This document shows, piece by piece, positions 7,575-63,396 of a stretch of 64,000 nt of DNA (position 1 is its first letter; each line of letters opens with the position of its first letter). The notes below the pieces were generated by a model. That model was not told the origin of the DNA and searched no databases. It was given only the letters and a program-made list of their open reading frames with translations. The DNA lies in contig JBGSSW010000016.1 of the NCBI GenBank assembly GCA_041736805.1, forward strand, positions 2,526-66,525, written 5' to 3'. Origin of the DNA: Minisyncoccia bacterium (lineage in GTDB: Bacteria; Patescibacteriota; Minisyncoccia; Phycocordibacterales; UBA918). The translations under genes were made by a program, and so were the position numbers.

Positions 7575-7587
7575 AGTGACTATTATG

Positions 7588-7631
7588 ACATGAAGTGGCT
7601 CGATGACAAAAGTCGTTATGTGACTTCATGT
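7588..7631. promoter_or_regulatory. 9-bp inverted repeat (acatgaagt ... acttcatgt) in the ctpA/cysS divergent intergenic region
   Basis: Seen directly in the sequence. A spacer of about 26 nt separates the arms. It may be an operator or an RNA hairpin; function unknown. Confidence 0.25.
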
Positions 7632-7660
7632 TTAAGCTCTATTTTGTTACACTATAGAAC

Positions 7661-9121: not shown

Positions 9122-9188
9122 ATTTACGACCTCAAAAGTTATAAACAAAGTCCACAGTACTGTGCAAAAGTAGTCAAGGAAGGAAGCG

Positions 9189-9206
9189 TGATACAATGCT
9201 ACCACT
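9189..9206 (+). promoter_or_regulatory. putative extended -10 promoter of dnaB (TGaTACAAT) lying 9 nt upstream of the ATG
   Basis: cgTGaTACAATgctaccactATG. No SD sequence separates the -10 element from the start codon. This implies a leaderless or very short leader. Confidence 0.35.
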
Positions 9207-10589
9207 ATGGCAGAAACACGTTCCACTAATCGTTCCTTACGGACACCTCCGCACAATATTGACGCTGAAAAAGCATTGCTGGGTGCGATTATTTTGAAAC
9301 CAGATGTTATGCATGATGTATCAGTGACGGTTTATCCTGAAAGCTTTTACGCCGATAAACACCGTGCAATTTACGATGCTGTTCTATCAATTTTTTCTAA
9401 AGGTGACCCTATAGATGTTGTTTCTTTAGTTTCAAAACTGAAGTCTAATAATACTCTCGATAGAGTAGGTGGTGCTAGCTATATAACTGAACTCATCGAG
9501 ACAGTACCCGCTGCCGGTAATGCCCACTACTACGCTGAACTTGTACAAGGAAAAGCCGCTCTCCGTAATCTTATCTATGCCGCTGATGATATTGCTGAAA
9601 TTGGCTACTCAGACCCAGAGAGTGTTGATGAAGCACTAGACCAAGCCGAGAAAAAAATCTTTCATGCCACCCAATCACCCACGGCGCAAAAATTTAAAAC
9701 TATCGGCACTTCCCTAACGGAAGCCTGGGAACGTTTTGAATACCTCAGTGCCAACCAAAATGAAAGACGTGGTGTGCCTTCCGGTTTTACTGCCCTAGAC
9801 AATGTTTTGGCTGGATTTCAAAAATCAGATTTGATTATCTTGGCGGCTCGCCCATCAATGGGAAAGACGACCTTTGCCTTGGACATTGCGCGTAACGCCG
9901 CCCTAAAATTTGGCGCCTCGGTTGGTATCTTTTCTCTAGAAATGAGTGACCAACAACTGGTGGACAGAATGCTAGCAGCTGAAGCTGGAGTTGACTCTTG
10001 GAAACTGCGAACGGGAAAACTTTCTAACGATCAAGAGTTTGAGGCTGTCCAACAAGCCATGGCTAAACTTTCTGACGCCCAAATACACATTGATGACCAA
10101 GCTGGCAACAACATTCTTAAGATGCGTTCGGCGGCGAGACGACTAAAAAACGAGCATGGTCTGGATTTGTTAATTGTAGACTACCTCCAGCTAATGTCCC
10201 CTACTGCTACCAAGGCTAGTGACTCCATGGTGCAACAAGTAACTGAAATTTCTCGCTCACTCAAAATCCTGGCTCGCGACCTAGAAGTACCAGTTCTTGC
10301 TCTTTCACAGCTCTCTCGAGCCGTAGAACAACGCGGTGGCAAGCCTCGCCTATCTGACTTGCGCGACTCTGGTTCTATCGAGCAGGATGCCGACGTGGTG
10401 ATGTTCATACACCGTGAGGACAAAATCAATAAAGAATCAGATCGGCCAAACATTGCTGAAATACTGGTAGAAAAGCACCGTAATGGTCCAGTTGGTTCAT
10501 GTGAATTATTCTTTGACGGTAAACACGTCCGTTTCCTCAATCTTGATACCAAGCATCACAGCGAAGCTGCTGCTCATGACGATTTCTAG
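9207..10589 (+). CDS. dnaB: replicative DNA helicase DnaB
   Basis: An N-terminal DnaB domain (IDAEKALLGAIIL) is present. The RecA-like core carries GFTALD...LIILAARPSMGKTTFALDIA (Walker A) and VDYLQLM. No intein is present. Confidence 0.9.
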   Translation: MAETRSTNRSLRTPPHNIDAEKALLGAIILKPDVMHDVSVTVYPESFYADKHRAIYDAVLSIFSKGDPIDVVSLVSKLKSNNTLDRVGGASYITELIETVPAAGNAHYYAELVQGKAALRNLIYAADDIAEIGYSDPESVDEALDQAEKKIFHATQSPTAQKFKTIGTSLTEAWERFEYLSANQNERRGVPSGFTALDNVLAGFQKSDLIILAARPSMGKTTFALDIARNAALKFGASVGIFSLEMSDQQLVDRMLAAEAGVDSWKLRTGKLSNDQEFEAVQQAMAKLSDAQIHIDDQAGNNILKMRSAARRLKNEHGLDLLIVDYLQLMSPTATKASDSMVQQVTEISRSLKILARDLEVPVLALSQLSRAVEQRGGKPRLSDLRDSGSIEQDADVVMFIHREDKINKESDRPNIAEILVEKHRNGPVGSCELFFDGKHVRFLNLDTKHHSEAAAHDDF

Positions 10590-12014: not shown

Positions 12015-13226
12015 CTAGTCTAATGCGAAATTTCTTGAAAGACGCTCAAGTGTTTCTTCTGACTGGGCTTTTGCCTTATCGTACAGAGGGATTAAGGTTT
12101 CAAGTAATATCTCTACAAATACTGGTGTCTTTGGGTCATTCTGAATACTTGCCAATGATTTAAAAAATGTTTCTCGTGTAATTTCTACAGTTCTCCTATA
12201 TTTATTATCTTTCTCTTCTGGGACATTTCCAGAGATAAGGGTATCAATATTTTTTTGCGCGTTACAAATTTGTAATTCAATAAAAGCTAACTTTTCAGCT
12301 GACGAATCAAATAATCTTTTGTCACCTAATAGAACCAAATTCTCAGCCATGCCGGCTCCCTGAGAAAATAAAACTAAATGAGCGAACAGATCTTCGCTTT
12401 TCAATTTATCTTTATTAGTATCGATAAAATTATTTAATAATGAAACCGCTTGATCTGTATCTGCTTGTTCAGAAAAATAGGGCTGGTCATCTGCTCTCAA
12501 ACCTCTAAATAAGGGAGTTTTGTCTTTCAAATAAATAGTATCTGCTAATTTTGCTAGTGACTTTGGATTTATTAAAAATTCATCATATCTCGACTTCCAA
12601 TCATCTTCTATTACGCGGGCAGAAAACATAGTGGCAAAGGCCTCTTCTAGGAGTGCCTGCTCCCCAGTATTGTGATTAATTTTATCTCTCATGAAAGTAG
12701 GGAGTGGGGAGTTCTCATTATCAAGTCCAAGCTTTATTGCCAAAATTATATGAACAAGATCATGATCCGTGACAGTTTCCATATCACCAGATAGGGTTTT
12801 TGTAGGATCGTATGTGATGCTTTTTAAATACTCTTGTTTAGTTAATGCTGAATTATTTGCAATATTTTTTGCTGTAACAACACTCATAACTCTTTTGAAT
12901 ACATAATCTAAAGTAGTCAAAACTACCTCTTCTTCTGCTGAGGAAAGTTCTCTACCAAAAGAGCTACGCGCTTTTTCGTAAATTAAATTTACCACAAGCA
13001 TTGTATTTAACTGAATTACAGCAGTTGAAAAATCATCCCGAAGGAAGTCGGTGGGCATTTGTTCAAAATCACCAACCTCTTTTTCCTTTCTACCCTGCTC
13101 ATATTCACTCACCTCAACGATATCTATTAAGTCATTTATTCTTTTCATTCTATCGACTTGAAATGAGTTAGCCTCTGCTGCATCCTCGTTGACTGAATTA
13201 ATGTTATTTTTTAAACTTTCTGACAT
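12015..13226 (-). CDS. hypothetical protein (403 aa, acidic, predicted helical), co-directional with and immediately downstream of rmuC
   Basis: Long ORF with no recognisable motif. A possible degenerate HD-like stretch DHDLVHIILAIKLGLD was noted but cannot be supported. Confidence 0.45.
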   Translation of the reverse strand: MSESLKNNINSVNEDAAEANSFQVDRMKRINDLIDIVEVSEYEQGRKEKEVGDFEQMPTDFLRDDFSTAVIQLNTMLVVNLIYEKARSSFGRELSSAEEEVVLTTLDYVFKRVMSVVTAKNIANNSALTKQEYLKSITYDPTKTLSGDMETVTDHDLVHIILAIKLGLDNENSPLPTFMRDKINHNTGEQALLEEAFATMFSARVIEDDWKSRYDEFLINPKSLAKLADTIYLKDKTPLFRGLRADDQPYFSEQADTDQAVSLLNNFIDTNKDKLKSEDLFAHLVLFSQGAGMAENLVLLGDKRLFDSSAEKLAFIELQICNAQKNIDTLISGNVPEEKDNKYRRTVEITRETFFKSLASIQNDPKTPVFVEILLETLIPLYDKAKAQSEETLERLSRNFALD

Positions 13227-13238
13227 ATTCTGTAGTTT

Positions 13239-14321
13239 TTAATCCTCCAGCTTTCCTTGCGGTTTATCAAGTGTAAGCGTGTCAATATCGATTGACTCGC
13301 CAGTAATACGCATGACATCCTTATCTATTTTTCCCAATTCTTTGTAGCCGGCATTGTAATGATTTACAGATGTCTCTAGGGTCTTACCTAGCTTGTGGTA
13401 ATAATCCTCGTATTTGCTAATATGCGTAGAAAGTCTCTCCACATTTTTGATAATATCCTGAGCTTTTTCCTCAATCTCCATCGCTTTAAGACCTTGCATA
13501 ACCGTTTGCAAATATGCCAAGAAAGAAGTTGGTGAGACGATAATTACCTTGTGAGTACCAGCCGCTCGTTGAATAAGATTTTCTTCACTGGCACCAACTT
13601 TATTTGAGAGCAGATCATAATAAATACCTTCGTGCGGAATAAACATAAAAGCAAAGTCGGTGGTTTTTTCGTTTGGTCTAATGTATTTAGCCGTTTCTGT
13701 GATGCGCAATTTAAGATCATTTACAAAAGCTTTTTCCAAAGCTATTTTTTCTGCCCCTTCTCTAGCTTCAACAAAACGATTGTAGTTTTCTAACGAAAAT
13801 TTTGAATCAATTGGAATTATTTTACCCTTCACAAAAACTGCCGCGTCAACAATATCTCCATCGCTAAAAGCATATTGCATTTTAAAACTCTCTGGAGGTA
13901 GAACGTTTTGTAGTACGGTTTCTAGATAGTATTCACCAAGAATACCTCGTTGCTTGGGATTTTTGAGAATATCTTGCAGTTCCTTCAGTTGATCAGCTAC
14001 CTGGAAAACCTGTTTACTACTCTCCCCCACCTCGCTAACGCTTTTAACTACACTACGAAGTTGTTCATTTACTTCTTTATTGATTTCCTGCATCAGCTCC
14101 TTACTTTCTCGAAATTGCAGACGGCTACCCTCTTGGGCAAGACGATTACTTTCACTCATTTGTTCCCGCATAGCTCGAGACAAATCTTGTAGCTGTTGCT
14201 GCATCAGCAGCATACTTTTATCATCTTCTTTCTTTTCTACCTCGCGAAAGAAAAATACGTAAAGTAATAAGCCAAAAATAGCCAACAGAAGCAGCACCAA
14301 AATAAAAGATATCGGTTCCAT
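13239..14321 (-). CDS. rmuC: DNA recombination protein RmuC
   Basis: An N-terminal TM segment is followed by a long coiled-coil. The GILGEYYLETVLQNVLP segment matches the RmuC signature (G.WGE..LE.vLe). Confidence 0.7.
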   Translation of the reverse strand: MEPISFILVLLLLAIFGLLLYVFFFREVEKKEDDKSMLLMQQQLQDLSRAMREQMSESNRLAQEGSRLQFRESKELMQEINKEVNEQLRSVVKSVSEVGESSKQVFQVADQLKELQDILKNPKQRGILGEYYLETVLQNVLPPESFKMQYAFSDGDIVDAAVFVKGKIIPIDSKFSLENYNRFVEAREGAEKIALEKAFVNDLKLRITETAKYIRPNEKTTDFAFMFIPHEGIYYDLLSNKVGASEENLIQRAAGTHKVIIVSPTSFLAYLQTVMQGLKAMEIEEKAQDIIKNVERLSTHISKYEDYYHKLGKTLETSVNHYNAGYKELGKIDKDVMRITGESIDIDTLTLDKPQGKLED

Positions 14322-19400: not shown

Positions 19401-20366
19401 CTAAGACTCATCATCTGCATCATCCTCATTATTGTCATCTTCTTCATTGTCTTCATTGTCTTCATCATCGATTTTATTTCTTTCCTTATATTCCTTTGCC
19501 AACTTTTCTAAGGCTGCTTGAGAAACTTTATACGCTTCTGTTGCATAATCATAAGCTGGACGTAGTTTATTTTTTTCTAGCTCATCTTCTGCTGAAATCA
19601 AAAGCCGTTTTGCCTTTGACAAGCTTTCATTTGCTTCACGCGTATTTCTAACTGTACTAGACGCTTTAATTTCCTTAATTTTATCCTCCAAATCGTCTAT
19701 TTTATCTTCAGCTTTTTTTATTGCTGAATTAACCGTTGAGGTAGAGGTTACTTTATTTGTTGTAGAAGTCGCTCTATCTTTATCCGATTTATCTTCTTTA
19801 CACAAGAAAGCCGAACCAGTTTTATCTTCACAGTCTAAATAGTTTTTACCATCTTTCTCTCTCCATCTTTCCAAGATTTTTTTACTTATGCCTGGGGCCT
19901 TTAGTAATCCAGGTGGAAGCTTACCTTCTTTCTTTTCTTTAAAATATTCTTGCATTAAGTCCTTTGTTGCCTCATCAATTTTACCAGTGACTGGTAAGTC
20001 ATGCCTTTTTTGGAAATTTTCAATAGCTTCTCTAGTCAGGGAGCCATAGTAACCACTCACTATCCCTCTTGGATATATCGATGGGTCGGTAGCAAGTAAT
20101 TCTTGTATCTTCCTTATATCGTCATTTTCCATTCCCTCTGCTAGACCACCCCTGATTTCCTCTCTTATTTCTCCCTTTATTTCAGCTAATTGTTTTTGTA
20201 AACTTTCGACTTGTTTCATCAAACTTTGTAGTAGTTCAAGTAGACCTGAGAGGTTCTCGCTTGTTTTCACACTAGTTGTGACAGCTGTCTCTGCTCTGAC
20301 AGTAGCTGGATAAACTGACAAGACGGCCAGTAAAACAAAAGTTAAGCCTAGAAAATAGTTCTTCAT
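19401..20366 (-). CDS. secreted protein with a peptidoglycan-binding domain (PG_binding_1-like) and a C-terminal poly-acidic tail
   Basis: A signal peptide and coiled-coil are followed by IRKIQELLATDPSIYPRGIVSGYYGSLTREAIENFQKRHDLPVTGKID, a PGBD-like sequence. The tail is DDEDNEDNEEDDNNEDDADDES. Confidence 0.6.
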   Translation of the reverse strand: MKNYFLGLTFVLLAVLSVYPATVRAETAVTTSVKTSENLSGLLELLQSLMKQVESLQKQLAEIKGEIREEIRGGLAEGMENDDIRKIQELLATDPSIYPRGIVSGYYGSLTREAIENFQKRHDLPVTGKIDEATKDLMQEYFKEKKEGKLPPGLLKAPGISKKILERWREKDGKNYLDCEDKTGSAFLCKEDKSDKDRATSTTNKVTSTSTVNSAIKKAEDKIDDLEDKIKEIKASSTVRNTREANESLSKAKRLLISAEDELEKNKLRPAYDYATEAYKVSQAALEKLAKEYKERNKIDDEDNEDNEEDDNNEDDADDES

Positions 20367-20423: not shown

Positions 20424-22145
20424 TTATTTATTTAAATTTAAGCTTTTCCCATTCTCAAGTATGTACAAAGCTCTAACTAAGCGAATCATTAAATAATCAT
20501 ACTCCTCACCAGTCTCCTCATAAAGTGGGCGTAATTTCTCAAAACCATGTTTTTCAATGGCTTTTAAAATATTTTTTTGAATTTTTTTATCCCAGCTAGG
20601 TTCTTTTTCAAGAATTGATTTTAGTTCTGGTACTGAGACGCCCTTATTGTCTACCATTGTCTCGAGATGGCCAACAATAGTTGAGACTGTCAGCTGTCTA
20701 AGGGTTGCTACCATCTCAAGACTCTTTCCTTCTAGGAGTAGCGTCTTGGTTTCATGCTGAGTACTCTCCTTTTTAATACGTTCTGACGGTGATTTTTTGA
20801 GCTTTATTAAATCTTTTTCTGATGGTATTACCCCTCCATTGGCTTTAACAAATCTCTGGTGCATTTCTTCTATTTCACTTTTCTCCATTTCAGCTAAAGT
20901 TTCTTCAGCTGAATCAGAATCAGAAATAAACCGATTGTCTTGCGCAATTATTTTTGGATCAACCATTAGTGCGTTAGCGTTCATTCCCAAGACCTTCAGT
21001 CCAGCCAACGAACGAACCCGCGAGAGAGCTACATAGCCCTGACCATAAACAAAAGACTTAGACAAATCAACTTCAGCGGCATCAAGTGACATGCCTTGGC
21101 TTTTGTGCACAGTAATGGCCCAGGCCAATCGCAATGGTAACTGTTCGATTGAGGCTAGCGTCTTTCCCTCTTCAGACAATTCCCAACTAACCGGTTCAAT
21201 GGTAATTCTTCTTTTGTCAGCGGTCTCAATGATTGGATTACCTTCGTAACTATCAAAACCCACTACACGGGCTAAGGTACCATTTACATATCCAGCTTCA
21301 AAATTATTTTTTGTACACATCACCATTGCCTCCTCTTTCAAATATAAAATCTCTGGTGAGAGGCAATTGCGTTTAAGCGATTCGTGTAAAATTTTATTTC
21401 CTCGCGCAGACATTTGGTACGATTTTGAGACCCCTTTTAATTCCGCCAACTTAGCTGAGTTTACCGCATCAACGTCGGCATTGTGAGTATAGAGTCTAGT
21501 CGGTTCAATGTCTTCATACTCTATGTCTACTTGCTCGCTAAGCAGAGTATAGTGGTCTTCTTCAATTTCTCCTTTACGAATTGAGCCAAGCAAACTAAGG
21601 AGTAATTCATCTTCTTGTCGAAATTGCTCTGTGATGTAACAGACTAAAGGTCTCAAATGTTCCCAGGCACGAGATTCAAAGGCATAGCGCATCATATCTC
21701 CCTGCCTAGCGATTGGTGGTAGTTGGAAAAAATCTCCGACACACACCACCTGCATACCACCAAAAGCCTCAGCCGATTTTCTAATTGTTCGACAGATTAT
21801 ATCCACCATGTCGAGCATCTTTCCGTCCAACATTGATATTTCATCAATAATTAAGACATTGGTTTTCTTGATTCTCTTTACCAATCTTTCCTTGGTTACA
21901 ATTTGATCTAAATCATAAGCATTTAAAGTGTCTCTAGCGCCCACACCACTCCAGGAATGAATAGTTAGCCCTCCAATGTGCGTCGCAGCAATTCCGGTTG
22001 AAGCAGTGACCGCAACTGTCAGTCCGGCAGCTTCAAGCCACTGTATGTATTTATTAATGACGTAAGTTTTACCAGCTCCAGGCTCACCGGTTAGAAAAAC
22101 ATTGGCTCCAGTTTTTAAAATTGAAAGTGCGGTCTCTTGTGTCAT
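20424..22145 (-). CDS. PIF1/RecD-family ATP-dependent DNA helicase with a C-terminal HTH/helicase-associated domain
   Basis: Contains Walker A FLTGEPGAGKT and Walker B LIIDEISML, plus a UvrD_C-like region (WAITVHKSQGMSLD). The C-terminal roughly 100 aa resemble the PIF1 HTH domain. The ORF-track N-terminal 114 aa (22146-22487) appear to be a spurious extension, so the start was set at MTQETA. Confidence 0.75.
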   Translation of the reverse strand: MTQETALSILKTGANVFLTGEPGAGKTYVINKYIQWLEAAGLTVAVTASTGIAATHIGGLTIHSWSGVGARDTLNAYDLDQIVTKERLVKRIKKTNVLIIDEISMLDGKMLDMVDIICRTIRKSAEAFGGMQVVCVGDFFQLPPIARQGDMMRYAFESRAWEHLRPLVCYITEQFRQEDELLLSLLGSIRKGEIEEDHYTLLSEQVDIEYEDIEPTRLYTHNADVDAVNSAKLAELKGVSKSYQMSARGNKILHESLKRNCLSPEILYLKEEAMVMCTKNNFEAGYVNGTLARVVGFDSYEGNPIIETADKRRITIEPVSWELSEEGKTLASIEQLPLRLAWAITVHKSQGMSLDAAEVDLSKSFVYGQGYVALSRVRSLAGLKVLGMNANALMVDPKIIAQDNRFISDSDSAEETLAEMEKSEIEEMHQRFVKANGGVIPSEKDLIKLKKSPSERIKKESTQHETKTLLLEGKSLEMVATLRQLTVSTIVGHLETMVDNKGVSVPELKSILEKEPSWDKKIQKNILKAIEKHGFEKLRPLYEETGEEYDYLMIRLVRALYILENGKSLNLNK

Positions 22146-22437
22146 AGTTGGGAATAAGCCTAACACATTTTGCTGAGAATACTGTAAAATAGTAGTAATG
22201 AAAAATAGTTCCTCAGGCTCATTGGCAATTATAAACCTTGATAGCAAAACAAAAAAGAAGGTTATTTCTAGTACTATAAATAAGTCCAAAAAAGTGACTC
22301 TGACTAAAAAGGCCCCTCCAATTGCGCACAGACATTCAACTAAAAAAGCCAAGTCCTCCTCTTCCCAAAACCACGCCATCAAAATTACCCCACCAACAAT
22401 AAAAAGAAACCCCCTCGGGCATCTTCTAATTGAAAAA

Positions 22438-24096
22438 ATGTTTAGAGAAGCCGGTTTTCGCGGCGGAATTTCTAGCGATAAGCGCATCCTTGAAAAGTAC
22501 AGTACTGATGAAAGTATTTTTTCCGTTAGACCTCAAGTGGTTATTCAACCCAAAAATCGCCATGATATCGAAATTGCCGCTAAAGTAATAGCGCGTGAGA
22601 CAAAACGCTTTTCTTCTCTTTCACTTACTCCCAGAGCAGCCGGAACAGGACTTAGTGGTGGTTCTTTGACTGATTCAATTGTGGTTGATGTTTGCTCTCA
22701 CCTAAACAAGATTGGTGAAGTTTTAGTCAAAAAAGATGGAGTTATATTTAGTTGCGAACCCGGCGCGATGTGGCGAGATGTAGAAAAAAAACTTAAACAT
22801 TATGACGCCTACATTCCTTCTTATACTTCATCAAAAGATATTTGCTCTATCGGCGGTTCTATAGGCAACAATGCAGCAGGCCCTGACTCACTTCGTTATG
22901 GTCATTGTGCTGAGTGGGTTGAGTCTCTAGACGTCGTTTTAGCTGACGGTAATTCATACACCATAAAACCTCTTGATTACAAGGAATTTAAAAATTTAAT
23001 CAAACAAAAGAACGAGTACGCGCGAATCGCCCAAGCCATTTTTTCTTTAATTGAAAAGAACGAAAAGGAAATTCTTAAGAGTATGCCCAAGACCAAGAAA
23101 AATACTGCTGGATACGCTCTCTGGCACGTAATACCAGAAAGTGTCGCCGCTTTCAAAAAAGGAATTGGTGTTTTTGACCTCACTCGTTTAATTAATGGTA
23201 GTCAAGGTACGATTGGTATTATTACCAATATCAAGATGCGCGCAATTCCAATTCAACATGATACTACCCTGCTAGTTATTCCTATCTTTGATTTACAAGA
23301 GGCAGCCCAAGTCGTGACTCAGTCTTTAAAATTCAATCCCATTAATGTTGAAATATTTGACGCTTTAACTTTTGACCTCGCACTGAAAAACCCCGATTTC
23401 TTTAAAAAAAGACTTGACGGTATGGACTACTATAGAACCATGCTTAATATGTATACTACTTATCATATCCGTTATGGTCGAAAAACGCCGGAATTCACTA
23501 TTCTTGTTACTCTAGACAAAGAAACGACCGAGGAAACCTCTAAAGCCGATATTATTACGGCCATCAGCACTAAAAAAACTCGAGCTAGAGTTGTTACTAG
23601 TAAGATAGAGGCGGAAATGCTTTGGCAAATCAGAAGAGCTAGCTATACCCTTTCCAAATTCCAAGATGCCAACAAACGTCCTGCCGCTTTTCTCGAGGAT
23701 ATGACAGTACCGCCAGAAAACCTCTCTAAATTCTTTATTGAAATTAAAAAACTATTGAATGAATTTAATGTTACCTCAGCTGTACATGGCCATGGGGGCA
23801 ATGGTCATTTTCACTTTTATCCCCTACTTGATTTCACCAACAAAACTACGCCTGTTTTAGTTGAAAAAATGGCTGAAAAATTCTACAACACTGCGGTCAA
23901 GTACAAAGGCAATATCTGTGGTGAACACAACGACGGTATCATTCGCACCCCTCATCTTAATAAATTATTCAACAAGCACATGCTTGAGCTGTTTAAAATA
24001 ACTGAGCATATCTTTGACCCCGACGATATCTTCAATCCAGGCAAAAAAGTTAATCCGCGCTTTGATATCAAAACCACAATGCGTACCAGCAATTAA
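22438..24096 (+). CDS. FAD-binding oxidoreductase (GlcD/D-lactate dehydrogenase-like FAD-linked oxidase)
   Basis: An FAD_binding_4 (PCMH) pattern (RPQVVIQPKNRHDIEIAAKV...RAAGTGLSGGS) is present, with a C-terminal FAD-oxidase_C region (HGHGGNGHFHF). The start is ambiguous; a Lys-rich in-frame upstream stretch (22198-22437) may be translated. Confidence 0.7.
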   Translation: MFREAGFRGGISSDKRILEKYSTDESIFSVRPQVVIQPKNRHDIEIAAKVIARETKRFSSLSLTPRAAGTGLSGGSLTDSIVVDVCSHLNKIGEVLVKKDGVIFSCEPGAMWRDVEKKLKHYDAYIPSYTSSKDICSIGGSIGNNAAGPDSLRYGHCAEWVESLDVVLADGNSYTIKPLDYKEFKNLIKQKNEYARIAQAIFSLIEKNEKEILKSMPKTKKNTAGYALWHVIPESVAAFKKGIGVFDLTRLINGSQGTIGIITNIKMRAIPIQHDTTLLVIPIFDLQEAAQVVTQSLKFNPINVEIFDALTFDLALKNPDFFKKRLDGMDYYRTMLNMYTTYHIRYGRKTPEFTILVTLDKETTEETSKADIITAISTKKTRARVVTSKIEAEMLWQIRRASYTLSKFQDANKRPAAFLEDMTVPPENLSKFFIEIKKLLNEFNVTSAVHGHGGNGHFHFYPLLDFTNKTTPVLVEKMAEKFYNTAVKYKGNICGEHNDGIIRTPHLNKLFNKHMLELFKITEHIFDPDDIFNPGKKVNPRFDIKTTMRTSN

Positions 24097-24175
24097 GCTG
24101 TCCCCTCTTCACTTATTGGCTTTTTTCTGCTATAAATATGCCACTTGTTTTAGCGGTAATTCGCAAAACGAGTAC

Positions 24176-24247
24176 GGCCCTATCGTCTAGTGGTTAGGAC
24201 ACAAGGTTTTCATCCTTGAAGCCGGAGTTCGATTCTCCGTAGGGTCA
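24176..24247 (+). tRNA. tRNA-Glu (anticodon UUC)
   Basis: A manual cloverleaf was built: acceptor stem GGCCCTA/TAGGGTC, anticodon stem-loop CAAGG-TTTTCAT-CCTTG, T-arm CGGAG-TTCGATT-CTCCG. The 3' CCA is not encoded. Confidence 0.8.
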
Positions 24248-24260
24248 CAGATTTTTAAAG

Positions 24261-24283
24261 CTTGTTTTACAACACTATTTCCA
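24261..24283. repeat. left copy of an imperfect ~22-bp direct repeat (cttgttttacaaCACTATTTCCA); the right copy is at 25785-25806
   Basis: 21 of 23 positions match the right copy with one indel. It lies 14 nt downstream of the tRNA-Glu 3' end. Confidence 0.45.
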
Positions 24284-24301
24284 GCTACCCTAAGGAGATA
24301 T

Positions 24302-24757
24302 TTGAAGTGTTTGGAACCAAGAAACAGAAAGCCGCCCGAAGGTGACTTTCCTTGGACGGCACTTGGTGCAACACGCGATTCAGATCTTGCTTTCCCAATG
24401 GAACTTGAAGCCTTCCTTGACTACATCACTCACTGCCGGAACTGGCTGAAGGCCGAGCATCGGAAGGAGCACCTAACGCCACTGGGCAATCGAGCCATTT
24501 ACACCGTTGATTTCAATGGTGTCGGCATTGATATCGGTGATGTGGCCTATGGGATAGATTTCGACAGCCTCGTTGCAACATCCACACTTCACACGCAGAC
24601 TGGGCGAACTCCAACGATTCTTGGAGACCTGGCGACGAGCACGGCGAGTGATGCGCAGGTCGTGTTGACCACCGGATATTCTCTCGACTTTGGGCATGTT
24701 TGCTCCTGGTTAAGCCGTATAACGGCGGGACTTTGCAAACCAGACTATACTATCTAA
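24302..24757 (+). CDS. hypothetical protein (151 aa, TTG start with an AGGAG SD) in a GC-elevated segment
   Basis: An ORF with GC-rich codon usage atypical for the window. No homologue was recognised. Antisense ORFs of similar size exist, so whether it codes is uncertain. Confidence 0.3.
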   Translation: MKCLEPRNRKPPEGDFPWTALGATRDSDLAFPMELEAFLDYITHCRNWLKAEHRKEHLTPLGNRAIYTVDFNGVGIDIGDVAYGIDFDSLVATSTLHTQTGRTPTILGDLATSTASDAQVVLTTGYSLDFGHVCSWLSRITAGLCKPDYTI

Positions 24758-24854
24758 TCGAGGTTTTGTAAACTCATTCCGAACTCTTCCCATCCCTTCA
24801 TTTCCTTCACCAATTGGTTCCAACTTTGTCCCATTTGGGTCACAGAAATAAAAA

Positions 24855-24886
24855 ACACCCACAAGCAAATGCTTGTGGGTGTTTTC
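24855..24886. terminator. strong hairpin terminator (12-bp stem acacccacaagc/gcttgtgggtgt)
   Basis: A perfect stem encloses an aaat loop. The T-run is stronger on the minus-strand reading (ttttt attt). Confidence 0.5.
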
Positions 24887-24918
24887 CTGGCAGTTCCAGA
24901 GGACGTCACTCCGGAGAT

Positions 24919-24950
24919 AAAAACACTCATTCACTAATGAGTGTTTTTAT
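24919..24950 (+). terminator. rho-independent terminator (aaaacactcatt-cact-aatgagtgtttttat)
   Basis: A perfect 9-12-bp stem is followed by TTTTTAT. Confidence 0.5.
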
Positions 24951-25008
24951 GCTTGAATGGGTGAGGAACATAATTTGACACCCTAGAAGCAACAGCTGGA
25001 GATATAAA

Positions 25009-25719
25009 TTGATTACTAAATTTCTAGTTTCATTCCTTGAGGCAGCAAACCTCAAGCTTCATCAACTAATTGATAAAGCCAACTTGGTCTATCTACGTAT
25101 GATTGTTGACGTTCTTTTTTTTCGACCTTTTGTCTTAAAGAAATGTGATTTACAAGTTCACAACCGTGAGCGCCTGCCCAAAAAAGGTCCGGCGATACTA
25201 GTATCTACCCACAGCAGTCACATGGACGCTGGAGTGATACAAGCTCTCTTCCCTCTCATGATGTTGCCCTACATAAGACCGAGTGCGGCCAGAGACCACT
25301 TCACGAAAGGATTACTCTGGCATTTGTTTGCTAGAGGATTTATGAGATTACTTTTTGTTGACCGGGGCAGCGGCCAGTTAGCTAAGACTGGGGACATAGA
25401 TCCATTTGGGGAACTTCACATCCCGCTTGAGGCCGGTTTGATGATAATCATTTTCCCACAAGGAACAAGAAATCCAGATGCAGGATTTCGCTCGGGTATC
25501 GTGCACTTAGCTAAAAGCTATCCGCACGTACCCGTCATCCCTATCCTGCTACGCGGAACACATGATGTACTGCCACCAAAGGCCAAAAGCTTTAGGGCTG
25601 GCCCAATTGCTGTATATGTAGGTGAAAAATACACCTTCAACCAACACCAAACGGCGTCAGAAAACGCCCAGGCTCTAGAGGCCTACATCTATCTACTTGA
25701 CCAAGCAAAAAACCAATAA
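25009..25719 (+). CDS. plsC: 1-acyl-sn-glycerol-3-phosphate acyltransferase family protein (PlsC-like)
   Basis: Acyltransferase motif I VSTHSSHMDAG (HX4D) and motif III FPQGTR. TTG start with a GGAGA SD 8 nt upstream. Local GC is higher than the window average. Confidence 0.7.
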   Translation: MITKFLVSFLEAANLKLHQLIDKANLVYLRMIVDVLFFRPFVLKKCDLQVHNRERLPKKGPAILVSTHSSHMDAGVIQALFPLMMLPYIRPSAARDHFTKGLLWHLFARGFMRLLFVDRGSGQLAKTGDIDPFGELHIPLEAGLMIIIFPQGTRNPDAGFRSGIVHLAKSYPHVPVIPILLRGTHDVLPPKAKSFRAGPIAVYVGEKYTFNQHQTASENAQALEAYIYLLDQAKNQ

Positions 25720-25750
25720 CGCCAAAATTAAGTTGTAGATGAAGGGGCCC

Positions 25751-25780
25751 CGTAAGCAAGGGGCCTTTTATTATAAATTT
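25751..25780 (+). terminator. terminator hairpin GGCCCC-guaagcaa-GGGGCC followed by TTTTATT
   Basis: A 6-bp all-GC stem with an 8-nt loop, followed by a T-run, sits directly after the plsC-like stop. Confidence 0.45.
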
Positions 25781-25784
25781 AACA

Positions 25785-25806
25785 CTTGTTTTACAAACTG
25801 TTTCCA
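25785..25806. repeat. right copy of the ~22-bp direct repeat (cttgttttacaaACTGTTTCCA)
   Basis: Matches the left copy at 24261-24283. Together they bracket about 1.5 kb of GC-elevated DNA next to tRNA-Glu. Confidence 0.45.
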
Positions 25807-25960
25807 ATTCGGAGTACATAGAGTCGCAAACGGGACTATATAGTCCAATATCCCCAATTTAAAGCTTTGATATCTGACTAATATAAATAATAATGGTGAT
25901 GGTAGTTTTTTGTACCTAGACACAATCCTTTACTCGGTCACAAATGAAAAGGAAATTTGG

Positions 25961-26353
25961 ATGATTAAAGCTCTCGCAAGAATTATTCCCGGGGCACCAC
26001 CAAACTGCCAAGACCTCATCACCCCAAATGGAGTCGTTTACTACGCTGGCAATAGTCATTACATTTGGAATGAGGGTGGAAAACTTGGTGTCTACGATGA
26101 CTCTCTTAGAAAAAACGTTCTTCCCTTTGAATTTCAGCAAATGATGCTTATCAGCATTTATAGCGGAAAATTGCTTTGGATATGGCGCCCTGACGGCTTG
26201 TCAGGTGTCTATGACATTAAGACAAAACTCATCTTGGTTCCGATAGAATTTCGTCAGGTGAGAATGACTCCATCTAAGGACCTTTTTGATGTTGTACTTC
26301 CAAACGGACAAAAGAAGCATCTGAACATCTTCACTTACAAGCTCGAAGATTGA
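25961..26353 (+). CDS. hypothetical protein with WG-type repeats
   Basis: Start set at MIKALAR, which has an AAAGGA SD. Repeated WxxGGKxGVYD and WRPDGLSGVYD motifs are present. Confidence 0.4.
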   Translation: MIKALARIIPGAPPNCQDLITPNGVVYYAGNSHYIWNEGGKLGVYDDSLRKNVLPFEFQQMMLISIYSGKLLWIWRPDGLSGVYDIKTKLILVPIEFRQVRMTPSKDLFDVVLPNGQKKHLNIFTYKLED

Positions 26354-26383
26354 GTCAAGTAAAGATTAATATCCATTCTTTGG

Positions 26384-26420
26384 GGGCCGCATGATGCAAT
26401 CATGCGGCCCTTAGTTATTT
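26384..26420 (+). terminator. rho-independent terminator (gggccgcatgat-gcaa-tcatgcggccc followed by ttagttatttt)
   Basis: Perfect 11-bp stem. It sits between converging genes. Confidence 0.55.
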
Positions 26421-26422
26421 TC

Positions 26423-27118
26423 TTATTCAGTTATTTTTTCAATAATTTCAATCATCGGTTGTAGAAGGTATAGTTCAATGATTTTTTGATAGCCAGCTTT
26501 ATTGAAGTGAATACCATCAGGTAACTTATATGAAGAATTTAAAAAAACTTCGGCCGTAATAAACGGGAGTAGTAATATTTTTTCCGATTCAGAAATTTCG
26601 CTGTAAAGTGAATCAAATAACTGTTTGTATTTTAGACCAGCATTAATTGGGGCTTGCATTTTAAGTAAAACAATAACAGGCGGATTAATACCACTTTTAA
26701 GAATCGTAATTGTCTCTAGGATGTTTTTTTTGGTTTCTTCAACAGGTAGTAAACGCAGGGCGTCATTTCCTCCAATCCCCAAAAGCACCACATCTGGATT
26801 TTGTTTACGAATAAAGGTAGCTCTTTCTAGATTGCCTTTAGTTGTCTCACCGCTAACACCAGAATTTATAACTGTGACAGCCAACCCTTTAGCTTTTAGC
26901 GCTAATTCAAGCTGGGCTGGATAACTCTCTCCGGCGAGTAAACCATATCCAGCCGTTAAACTGTCCCCAAAAGCAATAATTTTAACAGTCCCTTCGATTT
27001 GGGGCTTTGATTTAATATCTGAAATGACTTGCTCGTTTCTACTTCCAGTAGACAAATACATCGCCAGTAAAAGCAGGAGAACCCCACCAATCAAAAAGTA
27101 TTTACTGATTGGTTTCAT
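26423..27118 (-). CDS. SGNH/GDSL hydrolase (TesA-like arylesterase/thioesterase) with a signal/TM anchor
   Basis: Block I FGDSLTAGYG, block III GIGGNDA and block V DGIHFN, giving the catalytic Ser/Asp/His. Confidence 0.8.
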   Translation of the reverse strand: MKPISKYFLIGGVLLLLLAMYLSTGSRNEQVISDIKSKPQIEGTVKIIAFGDSLTAGYGLLAGESYPAQLELALKAKGLAVTVINSGVSGETTKGNLERATFIRKQNPDVVLLGIGGNDALRLLPVEETKKNILETITILKSGINPPVIVLLKMQAPINAGLKYKQLFDSLYSEISESEKILLLPFITAEVFLNSSYKLPDGIHFNKAGYQKIIELYLLQPMIEIIEKITE

Positions 27119-29600
27119 AAGATAATAATTCTCTTAAGGGCATTGTATCAGTTTTGAAAAGATAAAGACCAATTAGTCCCACCATAAAAACAATTAGTGT
27201 TAGGCCAATAATCAGCTCGGCATCGAACAGGACGACAGACTCTAGTTCCAAAAAGTAGTTACTAACTAAGAATGTAATTATCAAACTCAGTACATAAGAG
27301 AAGACAGCCGCCACTAAAGTGAGCGAGATTGTTTCGGCTAGGTATTGTTTCATCACCGTCATTCTGGTACTCCCAAGCGCTCGCATTCTCGCTCCTTCTC
27401 TTTGTCTTGATGCAAAAGATGATACCACTAGTGTTGCAATTAGCAGAGTAGCAATTAGCAGTGGAGGTAAGGTTACGACGAGAACTAAGACCAGTAAGGT
27501 ACCGACAATTCGCACCACCAATGGACCAATATTCTGGGTTTCAATAATTGTGATATTCGGCATTATATCAGCGATGAAGCTACCTAAAGCTTTCTGTTGC
27601 TCAGCTTCATAATATGAGAACGCAAAGTAAGTACCAGGAAAATCCCTTAAATCTTCTGGCGAGAAAATAAAGTAGAAGAATGGCAAACCAGAACGCGAAT
27701 CTGTACTACGCAGACTAGTCACCACCCCTTCAACCTCGAAACCCTGGACTAAAAAGACTAATTTTGAACCAAGGTTAATATCAGCCCGCTTTGCAAAACT
27801 CTCTTCGACCGAAATCTCACCTGGACGGCCATTGCTCCACTCTCCTTGAGTCACACTATCACTACTAGGCAAATCAGCATTTGAAGTAATGTTGAATTCA
27901 CGTCCCAGTTCTCTATCAACATCAGAGTTTGGAGAAGCTAACTCTTCCTGAATCAAACGATTATCAATACTGACAATCCTAGCTGAAATATTGGCAAACA
28001 TACTTAGGTCAGGAAAATTAGCCGCAATTTCATCTTTTTGTGATGGCTGAATGTCCAAAACATAAGTGGTCGGTACAGTGGAAGCTAGATCATTTTTGAG
28101 AAAACTCTCCAGAGAAATTTGTAGCAAAGCCAAAGTACTAAGCGCTGTTAAGGCTACAAAGAGTGAGGTGAATGAAACAATACCAAACAATCCATCAGCC
28201 TTCTTTTGACTAATTATACTTCTAAAAAAGAAGTTGAATTTTTGCCGGTGGCTGTAAAGAAAATTTAGGCTAAGAGAAAAAATCCCTGCCACAATAACGT
28301 AGACTAGGACAATGGCCAAAATTATTAGTAGCCCGTCCAAGAAATTGCCTAGTAGAAATGCTGCCAGTAGTACAAGTGGTAATAAAGTAAAAACTGTTAC
28401 TAGAGCAAGGGTTTTGAGCGGAAAGCCATCACCTGTGTCCACCTCACCACCAATAAGAATCTGTCTGGGGTTTAAAGATAAACTTTGTCTCAAGGCGGGA
28501 ATAAATGAAGACAAGGCAATTATTATTATCAAACCGAGACACAGAAATGAGTACAAATAAAAATCTGGCTTTGGAAGTGTAATCAAATATGTTTTCGACA
28601 CAAAATCAGTCAACCAATCAAACGCTAAAGCTCCCATACTTATTCCAATCAACCCCGATAATATGACGACATAAAATAACGCCATACCAAGTATGTACGT
28701 GAGTTTTCTTTTGGTCATGCCAAGTGCGAGTAGTACCGCCAAACTCTTCCTTTCTACCGTTACCAAATATAAAGTACTGGAATATACATTAACCGCCGCC
28801 AAGACAGCTGTGATTAAAACAGCTACAACTAAGAAGTCTGTTACTGTCTCAAGACCAAACTGCAAACCACGTCTATCTTGTCCTGCAATATCAACATCAA
28901 ATTCGCTACCAAAACTCTTTTCGGCTTCTCTTAGCCTGGTAATATCTAGACTGGATAAGTTGGTAAATTTTCCAGCATACGAATATTCGGCTCGTAATAA
29001 TTCTGGAGCTACTACAGACGCTGCAAAATCAGTGTCACTAATAATTGCCCTTGGTAAAAACCTAAATCCTCCAAATAACGAAGTTGGCTCAGAAACAACA
29101 ATACCCTTCAAAGTGAAAGTACTTTCTCCAAACGATACTTTGTCCCCAACAACCACTGCCAATTTTTGTGACCCACCTTGATCTAGGTAAATCTCACCCT
29201 CAGCAACTGGTTCAAATTTACCACTTTCTAAAATAAATTGTCCGTAGAGTGGATAAAAATTATCAACTGCCTGGACTGAAAATGAGGCTATCTCGTTAGA
29301 ACTTTGCAAGGTAGCTGTAAAAGAAATTTGTTTTGACTCTACTTCAGGAAAAACTTGAGCCTCACGCCAAAAATCTTCACTTATAATAGGAAGATTACTC
29401 TCAAGTACCACATCTCCACCCTGCAGTTCTCTCGCCTGCTCCTTAAGTAAGGCTGAGCTTGAACTAGTCAAAACCAACACCAACATCATCACTAAAGATG
29501 TGATAGCTAAAGAAAGTAGTGGTAAGACAAATTTTTTCCACTCACGTCTAACCAATCTCTGACTATATGTAAGAACTAGTTTAATTTCGTTCATAAACAC
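27102..29600 (-). CDS. ABC transporter permease, FtsX family with two FtsX domains (YbbP/MacB-like)
   Basis: 832 aa. Two sets of four TM helices are separated by a large extracytoplasmic domain. It overlaps the ABC ATPase gene upstream. Confidence 0.75.
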   Translation of the reverse strand: MFMNEIKLVLTYSQRLVRREWKKFVLPLLSLAITSLVMMLVLVLTSSSSALLKEQARELQGGDVVLESNLPIISEDFWREAQVFPEVESKQISFTATLQSSNEIASFSVQAVDNFYPLYGQFILESGKFEPVAEGEIYLDQGGSQKLAVVVGDKVSFGESTFTLKGIVVSEPTSLFGGFRFLPRAIISDTDFAASVVAPELLRAEYSYAGKFTNLSSLDITRLREAEKSFGSEFDVDIAGQDRRGLQFGLETVTDFLVVAVLITAVLAAVNVYSSTLYLVTVERKSLAVLLALGMTKRKLTYILGMALFYVVILSGLIGISMGALAFDWLTDFVSKTYLITLPKPDFYLYSFLCLGLIIIIALSSFIPALRQSLSLNPRQILIGGEVDTGDGFPLKTLALVTVFTLLPLVLLAAFLLGNFLDGLLIILAIVLVYVIVAGIFSLSLNFLYSHRQKFNFFFRSIISQKKADGLFGIVSFTSLFVALTALSTLALLQISLESFLKNDLASTVPTTYVLDIQPSQKDEIAANFPDLSMFANISARIVSIDNRLIQEELASPNSDVDRELGREFNITSNADLPSSDSVTQGEWSNGRPGEISVEESFAKRADINLGSKLVFLVQGFEVEGVVTSLRSTDSRSGLPFFYFIFSPEDLRDFPGTYFAFSYYEAEQQKALGSFIADIMPNITIIETQNIGPLVVRIVGTLLVLVLVVTLPPLLIATLLIATLVVSSFASRQREGARMRALGSTRMTVMKQYLAETISLTLVAAVFSYVLSLIITFLVSNYFLELESVVLFDAELIIGLTLIVFMVGLIGLYLFKTDTMPLRELLSYETNQ

Positions 29601-63324: not shown

Positions 63325-63396
63325 TCCGCGGTAGCTCAGTGGTAGAGCAGGTCGCTGTTAACGACTTGGTCGTAGGTTCGAATCCTACCCGCGGAG
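63325..63396 (+). tRNA. tRNA-Asn (anticodon GUU)
   Basis: A manual cloverleaf was built: acceptor stem TCCGCGG/CCGCGGA, D-arm GCTC-AGTGGTA-GAGC, anticodon stem-loop GGTCG-CTGTTAA-CGACT, T-arm GTAGG-TTCGAAT-CCTAC. Confidence 0.8.

Follow-up and report, generated by a model that had tools for sequence, protein, structure and literature searches.

The 3′ end of the tRNA-Glu gene in the DNA analysed here, a stretch of 64,000 nucleotides (hereafter the window), is probably the attachment site, in a Paceibacteria-like lineage, of integrative elements that encode large serine recombinases, and the DNA that follows it is probably a recombinase-less remnant at a decayed hotspot. This reading draws on the observed anatomy of the locus, its homologies, the recombinases present in relatives and the occurrence of the first inserted unit, cassette 1, in other contexts. 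A sequence-only reading had proposed tRNA-linked site-specific integration of a single 1.5-kb islet between 22-bp direct repeats; the tRNA-Glu 3′ flank does emerge as a hotspot from 41 relatives and four recombinases, but the single islet does not. The features of the tRNA-Glu gene and of cassette 1 are the following.

24123-24175, plus strand: putative tRNA-Glu promoter box and leader, TTTTTTCTGCTATAAATATGCCACTTGTTTTA...GAGTAC
24176-24248, plus strand: tRNA-Glu, anticodon UUC (ARAGORN; Rfam tRNA, 64 bits)
24242-24251, plus strand: left copy of the exact 10-bp direct repeat GGGTCACAGA, comprising the last 7 nt of tRNA-Glu and 3 nt more
24249-24843: cassette 1, a 595-bp inserted unit, GC-rich and compositionally deviant
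24254-24283, plus strand: left repeat of the sequence-only reading, containing TTGTTTTACAA and matching the right-hand element over its first ~30 nt only
24331-24360, minus strand: hairpin followed by a T-run, the likely terminator of the small gene, in a region kept in L058
24377-24697, minus strand: small-protein gene of the family MPKVEKI..RITRRK..KCGCC..EINGV..QWR.VLLPLLG, with an in-frame TAG at 24473-24475
24744-24772, minus strand: predicted sigma-70-like promoter TTTACA-17-TATAGT (10/12 positions) upstream of the small gene
24795-24843, plus strand: att-like element copy win2, ending in GGGTCAC, at the right end of cassette 1 (nhmmer E=4e-8)
24837-24846, plus strand: right copy of GGGTCACAGA, a repeat of the tRNA-Glu 3′ end
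24852-24885: perfect 16-bp hairpin, the putative former terminator of tRNA-Glu, displaced by cassette 1

Cassette 1 begins at the base right after tRNA-Glu and closes with an att-like element of about 50 nt; the direct repeats that include the tRNA 3′ end bound cassette 1 only. Both win2 and the right copy of the 10-bp repeat had been overlooked in the sequence-only reading. At L058 (L numbers denote the loci compared), a 596-bp unit is homologous to cassette 1 from end to end, with 79% column identity, and has another element copy rather than a tRNA as its left neighbour. In L056 and L060/L062, whose GC is 50-55%, the small gene of the cassette adjoins other tRNA-Glu genes, and a homologue sits within a ribosomal protein operon in L063. 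The hosts of cassette 1 range from 39% to 55% GC. Together with the hairpin behind it, win2 aligns with positions 13387-13500 of L003 at a score of 63, against 14.4 ± 2.2 for shuffles, and the hairpin at 24852-24885 is homologous to one that lies 3′ of an element copy in L003. In most relatives tRNA-Glu is followed at once by a hairpin, and the sequence TTTTCTGCTATAAATATGC(C)CACTTG upstream of the gene is kept in L003, L005, L010, L011 and L046. Exact copies of the tRNA-Glu tail lie downstream of the gene in L024, L030, L041 and L055 (14-nt probe; up to 17 nt in L055), as does a 15-nt exact copy in L003.

The gene content of cassette 1 had been described as a 151-aa orphan ORF on the plus strand. 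This ORF was rejected as a gene after a search of 5.8 billion proteins gave no homologue and Pfam no match; it lies on the wrong strand and is the antisense shadow of the small gene, which reads from 24697 to 24377 and has 75 representative homologues (E<=1e-3), its protein belonging to no family in Pfam or NCBIfam. The position of the TAG is occupied by Q or H in the homologues and homology persists past the stop, which identifies the small gene as a pseudogene, broken by a nonsense codon. The GC-rich stretch was likewise rejected as a structured RNA: Rfam matches the tRNA only, and folding z-scores without the two hairpins are weak, at -1.4 to -2.4 (two strands).

In 41 species-level relatives synteny extends as far as tRNA-Glu and is lost at once beyond it, resuming at GDSL-FtsX after 4.1 kb in L008, 7.2 kb in L003 and about 13 kb in L046; the content after the tRNA differs in 41 of 41, and none of these relatives carries the segment's genes within up to 10 kb of flank each. 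The only other assembly of the strain (L042), which makes up the whole strain-level comparison, is 100% identical. In L013, L025, L005 and L028 a reverse-strand gene for a large serine recombinase, with Resolvase, Recombinase and Zn_ribbon domains, overlaps the tRNA-Glu 3′ end. The recombinases of L005 and L028 are only 24-26% identical to that of L013, so several unrelated elements may use the tRNA-Glu site. L013 is the closest relative by the matched FADox segment (83%), and its 7.2 kb after tRNA-Glu end at an element copy (19657-19700).

No recombinase was found among the ORFs scanned in 24249-25831 or adjoining it, nor any tyrosine recombinase among the ORFs scanned, which upholds the earlier statement that the segment holds no integrase and fits its description as decayed or mobilised in trans. 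The ten least-annotatable ORFs of the window included no recombinase; one was later found by homology at the right edge.

63325-63397: tRNA-Asn
63385-64000, minus strand: C-terminal part of a probable large serine recombinase gene (204 aa within the window), ending at or overlapping the tRNA-Asn 3′ end

This 204-aa fragment matches Zn_ribbon_recom at E=1.2e-5 (26 bits; cutoff 25.3) and the L013 recombinase by tblastn at E=8e-7, and its product is a candidate trans-acting enzyme.

From these observations we infer an order of events, an att function for the elements and mobilisation in trans. The ancestral locus would have held tRNA-Glu, the terminator hairpin now at 24852-24885 and then a PlsC-like gene with its own promoter. 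The 595-bp cassette would have inserted exactly at the tRNA 3′ end, whose terminal sequence would act as the attB/attL core, bringing with it the minus-strand small gene with promoter and terminator, duplicating GGGTCACAGA and leaving the ~50-nt distal element, which may be read as attR (element half-site plus tRNA-like core); the small gene would have gained its nonsense codon later. Under this model an empty site would read tRNA...GGGTCAC directly followed by AGAAATAAAAAACACCC, with a predicted empty-site junction ...CCGTAGGGTCACAGAAATAAAAAACACCCACAAGC and a predicted circle junction ...CCCATTTGGGTCACAGATTTTTAAAGCTTG; no circular or empty-site junction was observed. To the right of cassette 1 lie the following features.

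24917-24950: perfect 15-bp hairpin, overlapping the conserved PlsC upstream region (TTCACTAATGAGTG..TTTTATGCTTGAAT)
25009-25719, plus strand: PlsC-like acyltransferase gene, 236 aa, TTG start (PF01553 E=2e-15, above cutoff; HX4D (HSSHMD) and FPQGTR motifs)
25744-25769, plus strand: terminator read in the sequence, hairpin GGGGCC..GGGGCC at 25744-25765, then TTTT
25770-25831, plus strand: att-like element copy winC, type 1 (nhmmer E=1e-16 and 1e-10), which includes the right repeat of the sequence-only reading at 25785-25806
25961-26353, plus strand: 130-aa ORF with an internal repeat

Several details of the earlier description of this part stand: the PlsC-like gene has its own SD and TTG start, and its homologues cover the N-terminus; the two strong hairpins, at 24852-24885 and 24917-24950, are indeed perfect; and a terminator lies just inside the right repeat. 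The protein can be called acyltransferase-like only, because the PlsC equivalog model TIGR00530 gives 36 bits, far below its cutoff of 103 bits. What we abandon is the view of this gene as islet cargo. It lies outside cassette 1, its homologues share 63-72% identity, a divergence similar to that of the neighbouring GDSL/FtsX genes, its upstream promoter box is kept in L050, L043 and L046, and its GC excess is common to every homologue examined. Close homologues are confined to a small clade and are accompanied by neither the small gene nor the repeats; L046 carries one in the same tRNA-Glu-to-GDSL interval, while L047 (downstream of tRNA-Glu) and L053 (upstream of GDSL-FtsX) each carry one where a single interval anchor is seen. 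The gene seems to be a long-term lineage resident of the tRNA-Glu-to-GDSL interval rather than recent cargo. The second element copy at the end of the PlsC segment (24847-25831) would place the gene within an older part of the island or at a junction formed by later rearrangement; no significant element copy lies beside the PlsC homologues of L043, L046, L047 and L053, so that the segment may be either an older islet or backbone. Beyond the segment, the 130-aa ORF fills the place of the RNase H-GTPase-...-methyltransferase block of L046 and L053; it has no homologue in the relatives' loci compared and no Pfam family.

The composition of the segment follows the same division. Its raised GC is real (0.46, against a window mean of 0.392 with sd 0.024 in 1.5-kb windows), making it the highest-GC 1.5-kb stretch within the 64 kb, and the excess comes mainly from 24300-24760 (0.52). 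The k-mer deviation expected of the whole segment holds for cassette 1 but not for the PlsC part: in trinucleotide content only 24249-24843 is an outlier (top 1.3% of windows), the PlsC part being unremarkable at 10%, and dinucleotide bias is normal for both.

The repeats that had been taken to bound one islet also receive a different interpretation. The 12-mer CTTGTTTTACAA occurs exactly at 24261 and 25785, and the match extends to 26 of 30 aligned positions (24254-24283 and 25778-25806). The 12-mer alone is not significant, with 3 matches in the window against 1.1 expected and 3 reached by 6 of 100 shuffles; the extended match does reach significance, being attained by 0 of 2000 shuffles and having E=0.003 in a blastn comparison with the whole window. 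A third exact 12-mer, at 3834, falls within an ORF and appears fortuitous. An explanation of the repeat as a common window-wide motif was rejected, TATAAAT-N4-CACTTGTTTTA being present at only two sites in the locus. The direct-repeat claim therefore stands as to the sequence match, but not as to att sites of one 1.5-kb islet. The sequences suggest instead that the 22-bp repeats are a shared sub-motif, TTGTTTTACAA..TTTCCA, present at the end of cassette 1 that adjoins the tRNA and again in the 5′ portion of the distal element; it may be a protein-binding site. For TTGTTTTACAA a mononucleotide model predicts about 0.8 matches in 831 kb; 11 were found, 8 of them on the same strand as tRNA-Glu and downstream of it.

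These results make it quite improbable that a single 1.5-kb islet (24261-25806) was inserted here, carrying the small gene and PlsC between 22-bp repeats that served as attL and attR. Such an islet would accord with a statistically real repeat that brackets the whole GC-elevated stretch and with the enrichment of TTGTTTTACAA downstream of tRNA-Glu across loci, and it predicts an empty site tRNA-...AAAG-CTTGTTTTACAA-ACTGTTTCCAATTCGG with the junction ...AAAGCTTGTTTTACAAACTGTTTCCAATTCGG. However, a third element copy and the exact tRNA-tail repeat split the segment at 24843, its first 595 bp occur separately, without PlsC, in L058, L056 and L060, and the PlsC gene has homologues apart from the small gene and the repeats as well as ordinary composition. 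The left repeat, moreover, holds no tRNA sequence, lies inside the region homologous to L058, and is not detected by the element profile even at E<=50.

The element itself is recurrent. Its profile finds 12 significant copies in 9 loci (E 3e-14 to 5e-8), 9 of them on the same strand as a tRNA-Glu and 0.45-7.2 kb downstream of it, and copies of the winC element occur in L003 (two), L013, L024, L050, L054, L055, L058 (two) and L060. A different subtype from win2, winC consists of a 5′ part resembling the tRNA-Glu promoter (TATAAATTTAACACTTGTTTTACAA), a conserved middle (TTTCCAATTCGGAGTAC) and a tail resembling the tRNA 3′ end (ATAGAGTCGCA). The last 16 positions of the profile match the tRNA-Glu 3′ end in about 15 loci, and 10 of 2000 shuffles align with the tRNA 3′ end as well as the type-1 consensus does. 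For single elements the resemblance is weak: the win2 score is reached by 180 of 2000 shuffles, and that of winC, whose tail is decayed with about 9 of 12 positions kept, is not significant. No copy was found on viral contigs, and in the metagenome collection the strict element pattern matched no more than two contigs.

The promoter-like part of the element allows a reading that involves no mobility, in which the repeats are copies of the tRNA-Glu promoter and leader re-used as promoters and the variability reflects ordinary deletion and rearrangement in a gene-poor, fast-evolving region. The tRNA-Glu promoter region at 24131-24152 recurs at 25772-25793 with 19 of 22 positions, a match overlooked in the earlier work, so that the right element opens with a copy of the box TATAAAT-N4-CACTTGTTTTA; a -10-like box stands at the same position in several copies (TGTATAAT in L055, TGTAAAAT in L024), and the PlsC promoter box is also conserved. 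We nevertheless consider this reading unlikely, as it accounts neither for the fusion of recombinase genes with this tRNA end in four relatives, nor for the exact tRNA-tail repeats, nor for a 0.6-kb unit of foreign GC that occurs beside different left neighbours.

It is very unlikely that the element is instead a gene product, a small RNA or micro-peptide placed after tRNA-Glu for co-transcription or processing rather than by recombination. Its high cross-species conservation and the codon-like pattern of its variable sites could be read in this way, as could the plus-strand translation LFYNPVPIRTT*, the minus-strand pattern V-T-x-x-x-x-N-W-N-Q-[ILF]-V-[KR]-[EQ] with its conservative changes, and the minus-strand ORFs of 28-29 aa in the window (24754-24843) and L058. 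Against it, RNAalifold yields 0 consensus pairs in 7 copies and Rfam no match in L054 or L055, the minus-strand frame is broken in L003b and L054, and the plus-strand ORFs have 12-29 aa (65 aa in the degenerate L013 copy), most without a usable start codon. A coding-like pattern would also be expected if the frame of a recombinase crosses attP, as at attL in L013. The 127/128-aa partner genes of the small gene were tried as the source of the minus-strand micro-ORF and are unrelated to it.

The locus and its relatives indicate that serine-recombinase elements have landed repeatedly at a tRNA-Glu 3′ end in one Patescibacteria lineage, and that recombinase-less mini-cassettes persist there. Few mobile elements have been described in Patescibacteria, whose genomes are very small, and the locus would be an island of a familiar kind that is hardly described in this group. 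The element profile and the tRNA-end-fused recombinases offer a handle for accessory DNA and horizontal transfer in Patescibacteria, and the annotation is corrected in two respects, the small gene being a minus-strand pseudogene and the acyltransferase probably not recent cargo. A more far-reaching proposal, which we regard as doubtful, is that tRNA-Glu is the entry point of an integron-like cassette platform: one-gene cassettes of 0.2-1.4 kb with their own promoter and terminator, tagged by ~50-nt elements (a tRNA-promoter-like box plus a tRNA-3′-end-like core), would be inserted and shuffled by a serine recombinase encoded elsewhere. Such a platform, if true, would be a gene-exchange route in genomes otherwise poor in mobile DNA.

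The likeness to integron arrays lies in small, mostly one-gene units in one orientation from a fixed entry point, each ending in a recombination-site-like element (in the window, L003, L050, L055 and L058). Unlike in integrons, the elements lack an attC-type imperfect palindrome (0 pairs, 7 copies), the cassettes have their own promoters, and the associated enzyme is a serine recombinase, no IntI tyrosine recombinase having been seen among the ORFs scanned. Cis-mobilisable elements (CIMEs) and tandem accretion at tRNA or tmRNA genes are familiar from the literature on ICEs and IMEs. By analogy, the locus may be called CIME-like in its att-like flanking repeats, the lack of an encoded recombinase and its tandem arrangement at a site used by integrase-bearing relatives; in contrast to CIMEs, the att-like sequences are decayed here and mobilisation in trans is presumed. 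The CIME concept is described in a study of Dehalococcoides ssrA islands (PMC3146451), several of which follow a single small RNA gene in tandem; short direct repeats of the ssrA 3′ end bound each island, and immediately upstream of the repeat is another conserved motif, which does not match the RNA gene (PMC3146451). Their integrase is a large serine recombinase of ~530-540 aa, whose reverse-strand gene adjoins attL and has att embedded in it, and some islands without the integration module are read as cis-mobilisable or fixed (PMC3146451). Each of these features has a counterpart at the tRNA-Glu loci, the recombinases being likened by class and layout. The differences are that the target here is tRNA-Glu, not tmRNA, in a Patescibacteria-type host; that the units are far smaller (cassettes of 0.2-1.4 kb; 7 kb with integrase), the window copy having no integration module; and that the element here carries a copy of the tRNA promoter box.

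The host genome of the window belongs to the Patescibacteria (Paceibacteria/Parcubacteria-like) and has ~39% GC. For the FAD-linked oxidase encoded to the left of the finding, 41 relatives at species level were found, at 56-83% amino acid identity and all labelled as Patescibacteria (Paceibacteria/Parcubacteria-like) MAGs. Among the loci fetched from relatives (handles L001-L063), L042, from a second assembly of the same strain, is 100% identical to the window across 22099-28719. Most of the 41 loci keep PIF1-like helicase, FAD oxidase and tRNA-Glu in this order, and comparison of the same 41 revealed no conserved content 3' of tRNA-Glu. Synteny with the window restarts at the GDSL lipase and FtsX genes, at 4.1 kb (L008), 7.2 kb (L003) or ~13 kb (L046), and picks up further right in L015. 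The DNA before the restart includes a restriction-modification set with DndB in L046, and L013 carries an AAA_15 ATPase gene 3' of tRNA-Glu. Since gene order is conserved up to tRNA-Glu and is followed by differing accessory DNA, the tRNA-Glu 3' flank is hypervariable throughout the lineage. In L008, the variable stretch from tRNA-Glu to GDSL includes an IS200-type (Y1) transposase gene (13013-13681). On the conserved side, the longest FAD-oxidase ORF of the window overlaps the helicase ORF by 290 nt (22198-22487); the gene call of the strain's other assembly has the oxidase begin at 22438 (552 aa), which makes translation of the Lys/Ser-rich first 80 aa unlikely. The main features of the variable side are as follows.

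24176-24248: tRNA-Glu(UUC)
24249-24843: 595-bp unit, termed cassette 1
24377-24697, minus strand: small gene within cassette 1
25009-25719, plus strand: PlsC-like acyltransferase gene
25770-25831: window copy (winC) of an att-like element

The sequence-only reading had proposed here a GC-rich integrated islet bounded by ~22-bp direct repeats, and its raw observations hold in part. The repeat CTTGTTTTACAA occurs exactly at 24261 and 25785, within an alignment that extends to 26 of 30 positions; the 12-mer alone is within chance (3 matches against 1.1 expected, with 6 of 100 shuffles reaching 3), whereas the extended match exceeds it (0 of 2000 shuffles). No other 1.5-kb stretch of the window is as rich in GC as the segment (0.46 vs 0.392 +/- 0.024), and the two hairpins, both perfect, the acyltransferase ORF and its terminator are all present. 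Two features had escaped that reading: the right repeat also matches the tRNA-Glu promoter region (TATAAAT-N4-CACTTGTTTTA, 24131-24152 vs 25772-25793), and the segment holds a further repeat system besides the 22-bp repeats.

The right repeat is a portion of a ~50-65-nt element, winC, with a further copy inside the window at 24795-24843 and significant copies in L003 (two), L013, L024, L050, L054, L055, L058 (two) and L060, giving twelve significant copies in nine loci (nhmmer E 3e-14 to 5e-8). Nine of the copies sit 0.45-7.2 kb downstream of tRNA-Glu on the same strand. At its 3' end the element carries the tRNA-Glu tail, (T)TAGGGTCAC. The final 16 positions of its profile pick out the tRNA-Glu 3' end in ~15 loci, and when the type-1 consensus is aligned with the tRNA 3' end, only 10 of 2000 shuffles score as high. 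Type 1, comprising winC and the copies in L003, L024, L050, L054 and L055, has CACTTGTTTTACAA at its 5' end, with a -10-like box before it in several copies, an arrangement also seen in the tRNA-Glu promoter. No consensus RNA structure was found for the element. In L013, a copy closes the 7.2 kb that open with a recombinase gene. We infer that the element is an attR, composed of an element-side half-site and a tRNA-like core. Read in reverse complement, the element has a GTG from which ORFs of 28-29 aa start, at 24754-24843 of the window (minus strand; VTQMGQSWNQLVKEMKGWEEFGMSLQNLD) and at 24-110 and 620-706 of L058. The differences between window and L058 are synonymous and conservative; these ORFs may encode genuine micro-proteins or be relics of a recombinase frame that crosses attP.

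The left repeat falls within the leftmost 35 nt of cassette 1, a stretch homologous to L058 but poorly conserved, and is not recognized by the element profile. Across the 831 kb of fetched DNA, the core of this repeat, TTGTTTTACAA, was counted 11 times, where a mononucleotide model predicts ~0.8. Eight of these sites follow a tRNA-Glu on its own strand, and two of the eight fall in successive tandem units of L018. A predicted protein-binding site is a plausible reading of this core. The L018 units form a 29-nt tandem repeat, GTTGTTTTACAAAGGATGGTCCTTTGTAG (~10000-10110, ~3 copies, 0.3 kb downstream of tRNA-Glu), which holds the TTGTTTTACAA core and an internal palindrome. At 24284-24295, 36 nt past the tRNA, the window carries GCTACCCTAAGG, a degenerate inverted tRNA-Glu 3' end complementary to CCGTAGGGTCAC at 9 of 12 positions; the same layout occurs in L058 and many relatives, and GCTACCCTAAGG includes the AAGGAG previously taken for a Shine-Dalgarno box.

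Cassette 1 is delimited by a different repeat. GGGTCACAGA (24242-24251), made up of the tRNA tail and the next three bases, has an exact second copy at 24837-24846, where the internal element copy ends. The 595-bp stretch delimited in this way can be aligned over its full length with a 596-bp unit of L058 (79% column identity), and another element copy of L058 stands opposite the window's tRNA tail. The compositional deviation is confined to cassette 1. Directly 3' of it lies a hairpin (24852-24885) that also follows an element copy in L003, and a hairpin lies immediately 3' of tRNA-Glu in most relatives. On the simplest reading, this hairpin would be the former tRNA terminator, and cassette 1 would have inserted between the two.

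The "151-aa orphan ORF" on the plus strand has no homologue, and the GC-rich part of the segment is a minus-strand gene. There, a 74-aa ORF (24473-24697) has an AGGAG box, an ATG start, a TTTACA-17-TATAGT promoter and 75 representative homologues at E<=1e-3; no Pfam or NCBIfam model matched the family. The homologues have lengths of 90-110 aa and share the reading ...QWR(Q/H)VLLPLLG..., where the window has ...QWR-stop-VLLPMLGLQPVPAVSDVVKEGFKFHWESKI-stop. Since the closest relative runs on through the same stretch, the gene spans 24377-24697 and is broken by a nonsense codon at 24473-24475. The small gene also adjoins tRNA-Glu, in convergent orientation, in L056 and L060/L062 (50-55% GC), with further tRNA-tail copies between the two, and a homologue lies in a 3.2-kb insert of a ribosomal protein operon in L063. 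That insert (6471-9732) separates the L5 and S8 genes in an organism of 61% GC; besides the homologue it carries a gene for a 127-aa partner and, on the reverse strand, four small ORFs.

The PlsC-like gene is intact (PF01553, HX4D and FPQGTR motifs), with a score far under the PlsC equivalog cutoff, and its protein has 11 close homologues at 63-72% identity. Within the same genomes, identity to the window is 62-67% for PlsC, 58-71% for GDSL and 53-57% for FtsX, a comparison that gives no sign of recent import. All examined homologues are 4-11 GC points above their own loci, which makes the elevated GC a trait of the family. Upstream of the gene there is a conserved promoter-like box, TTyTATGyTTrAAT. 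In L046 the interval from tRNA-Glu to GDSL-FtsX contains the gene; it is found downstream of tRNA-Glu in L047, upstream of GDSL-FtsX in L053 and on a different contig in the L008 genome. An RNase H-GTPase block follows it in L046, L047, L050 and L053 and was not found in the window. PlsC stands between two element copies in the window and after two in L050; no element was found beside it in L043, L046, L047 or L053. We conclude from these comparisons that PlsC is a long-term resident of the tRNA-Glu-to-GDSL interval, either as backbone or as part of an old fixed islet with winC as its distal end. Downstream, a 130-aa ORF with an internal repeat (26042-26149 vs 26159-26266, 36% amino acid identity) has no homologue in any fetched locus.

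Recombinase genes occur at tRNA 3' ends in relatives and, as a predicted C-terminal part, in the window itself. Judged by FAD oxidase, L013 is the closest relative (83% over the matched segment); it has a 528-aa reverse-strand ORF with Resolvase, Recombinase and Zn-ribbon domains, whose last ~20 codons are read out of the tRNA-Glu 3' end. The same site holds homologous genes for large serine recombinases in L025 (66% identity), L005 and L028 (24-26%), and fragments are present in L038, L001 and L035. The window has the following pair at its right end.

63325-63397: tRNA-Asn, adjoining the recombinase C-terminal part
63385-64000, reverse strand: predicted large serine recombinase gene, C-terminal part, with its stop at or inside the tRNA-Asn 3' end

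This region (63325-64000) is probably the left end of an integrative element running beyond the window. Given recombinase genes at tRNA-Glu in relatives and a predicted one at tRNA-Asn in the window, serine-recombinase elements thus use tRNA 3' ends as attachment sites in these organisms.

Other sequences also follow tRNA-Glu. Many relatives (L055, L024, L030, L041, L017, L018, L034 and L031) carry, after the tRNA and hairpin, a ~140-190-nt unit (L055 670-810; two in tandem in L024, at 8054+178 and +359). It starts with a hairpin-interrupted reverse complement of the tRNA 3' end (GTGATCCCACG), contains several further hairpins and ends, in most of these loci, with an exact or near-exact tRNA-tail copy. 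The L055 copy had no Rfam match; candidate explanations for the unit are an empty cassette, a miniature inverted-repeat element and a structured RNA. A sequence (CCA)AAGAGAGAGCTAGTTCGAGCACTCGAGAAG..., possibly a further small RNA or processing signal, is conserved directly 3' of tRNA-Glu in L001, L006, L010 and L035, and after the ~140-190-nt unit in L024; relatives with it encode CCA.

We regard the locus as a remnant that lacks a recombinase and sits at a tRNA-Glu integration hotspot. Site-specific integration, the general idea of the sequence-only reading, stands, but not the boundaries, cargo and orphan ORF that it proposed. In the literature matches on Patescibacteria, titles and abstracts did not mention tRNA, integrative or genomic islands. 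Among known systems, the tandem ssrA islands of Dehalococcoides come closest: in them, too, the att repeat is embedded within the recombinase gene, as it is for the tRNA-end recombinases described here (PMC3146451).
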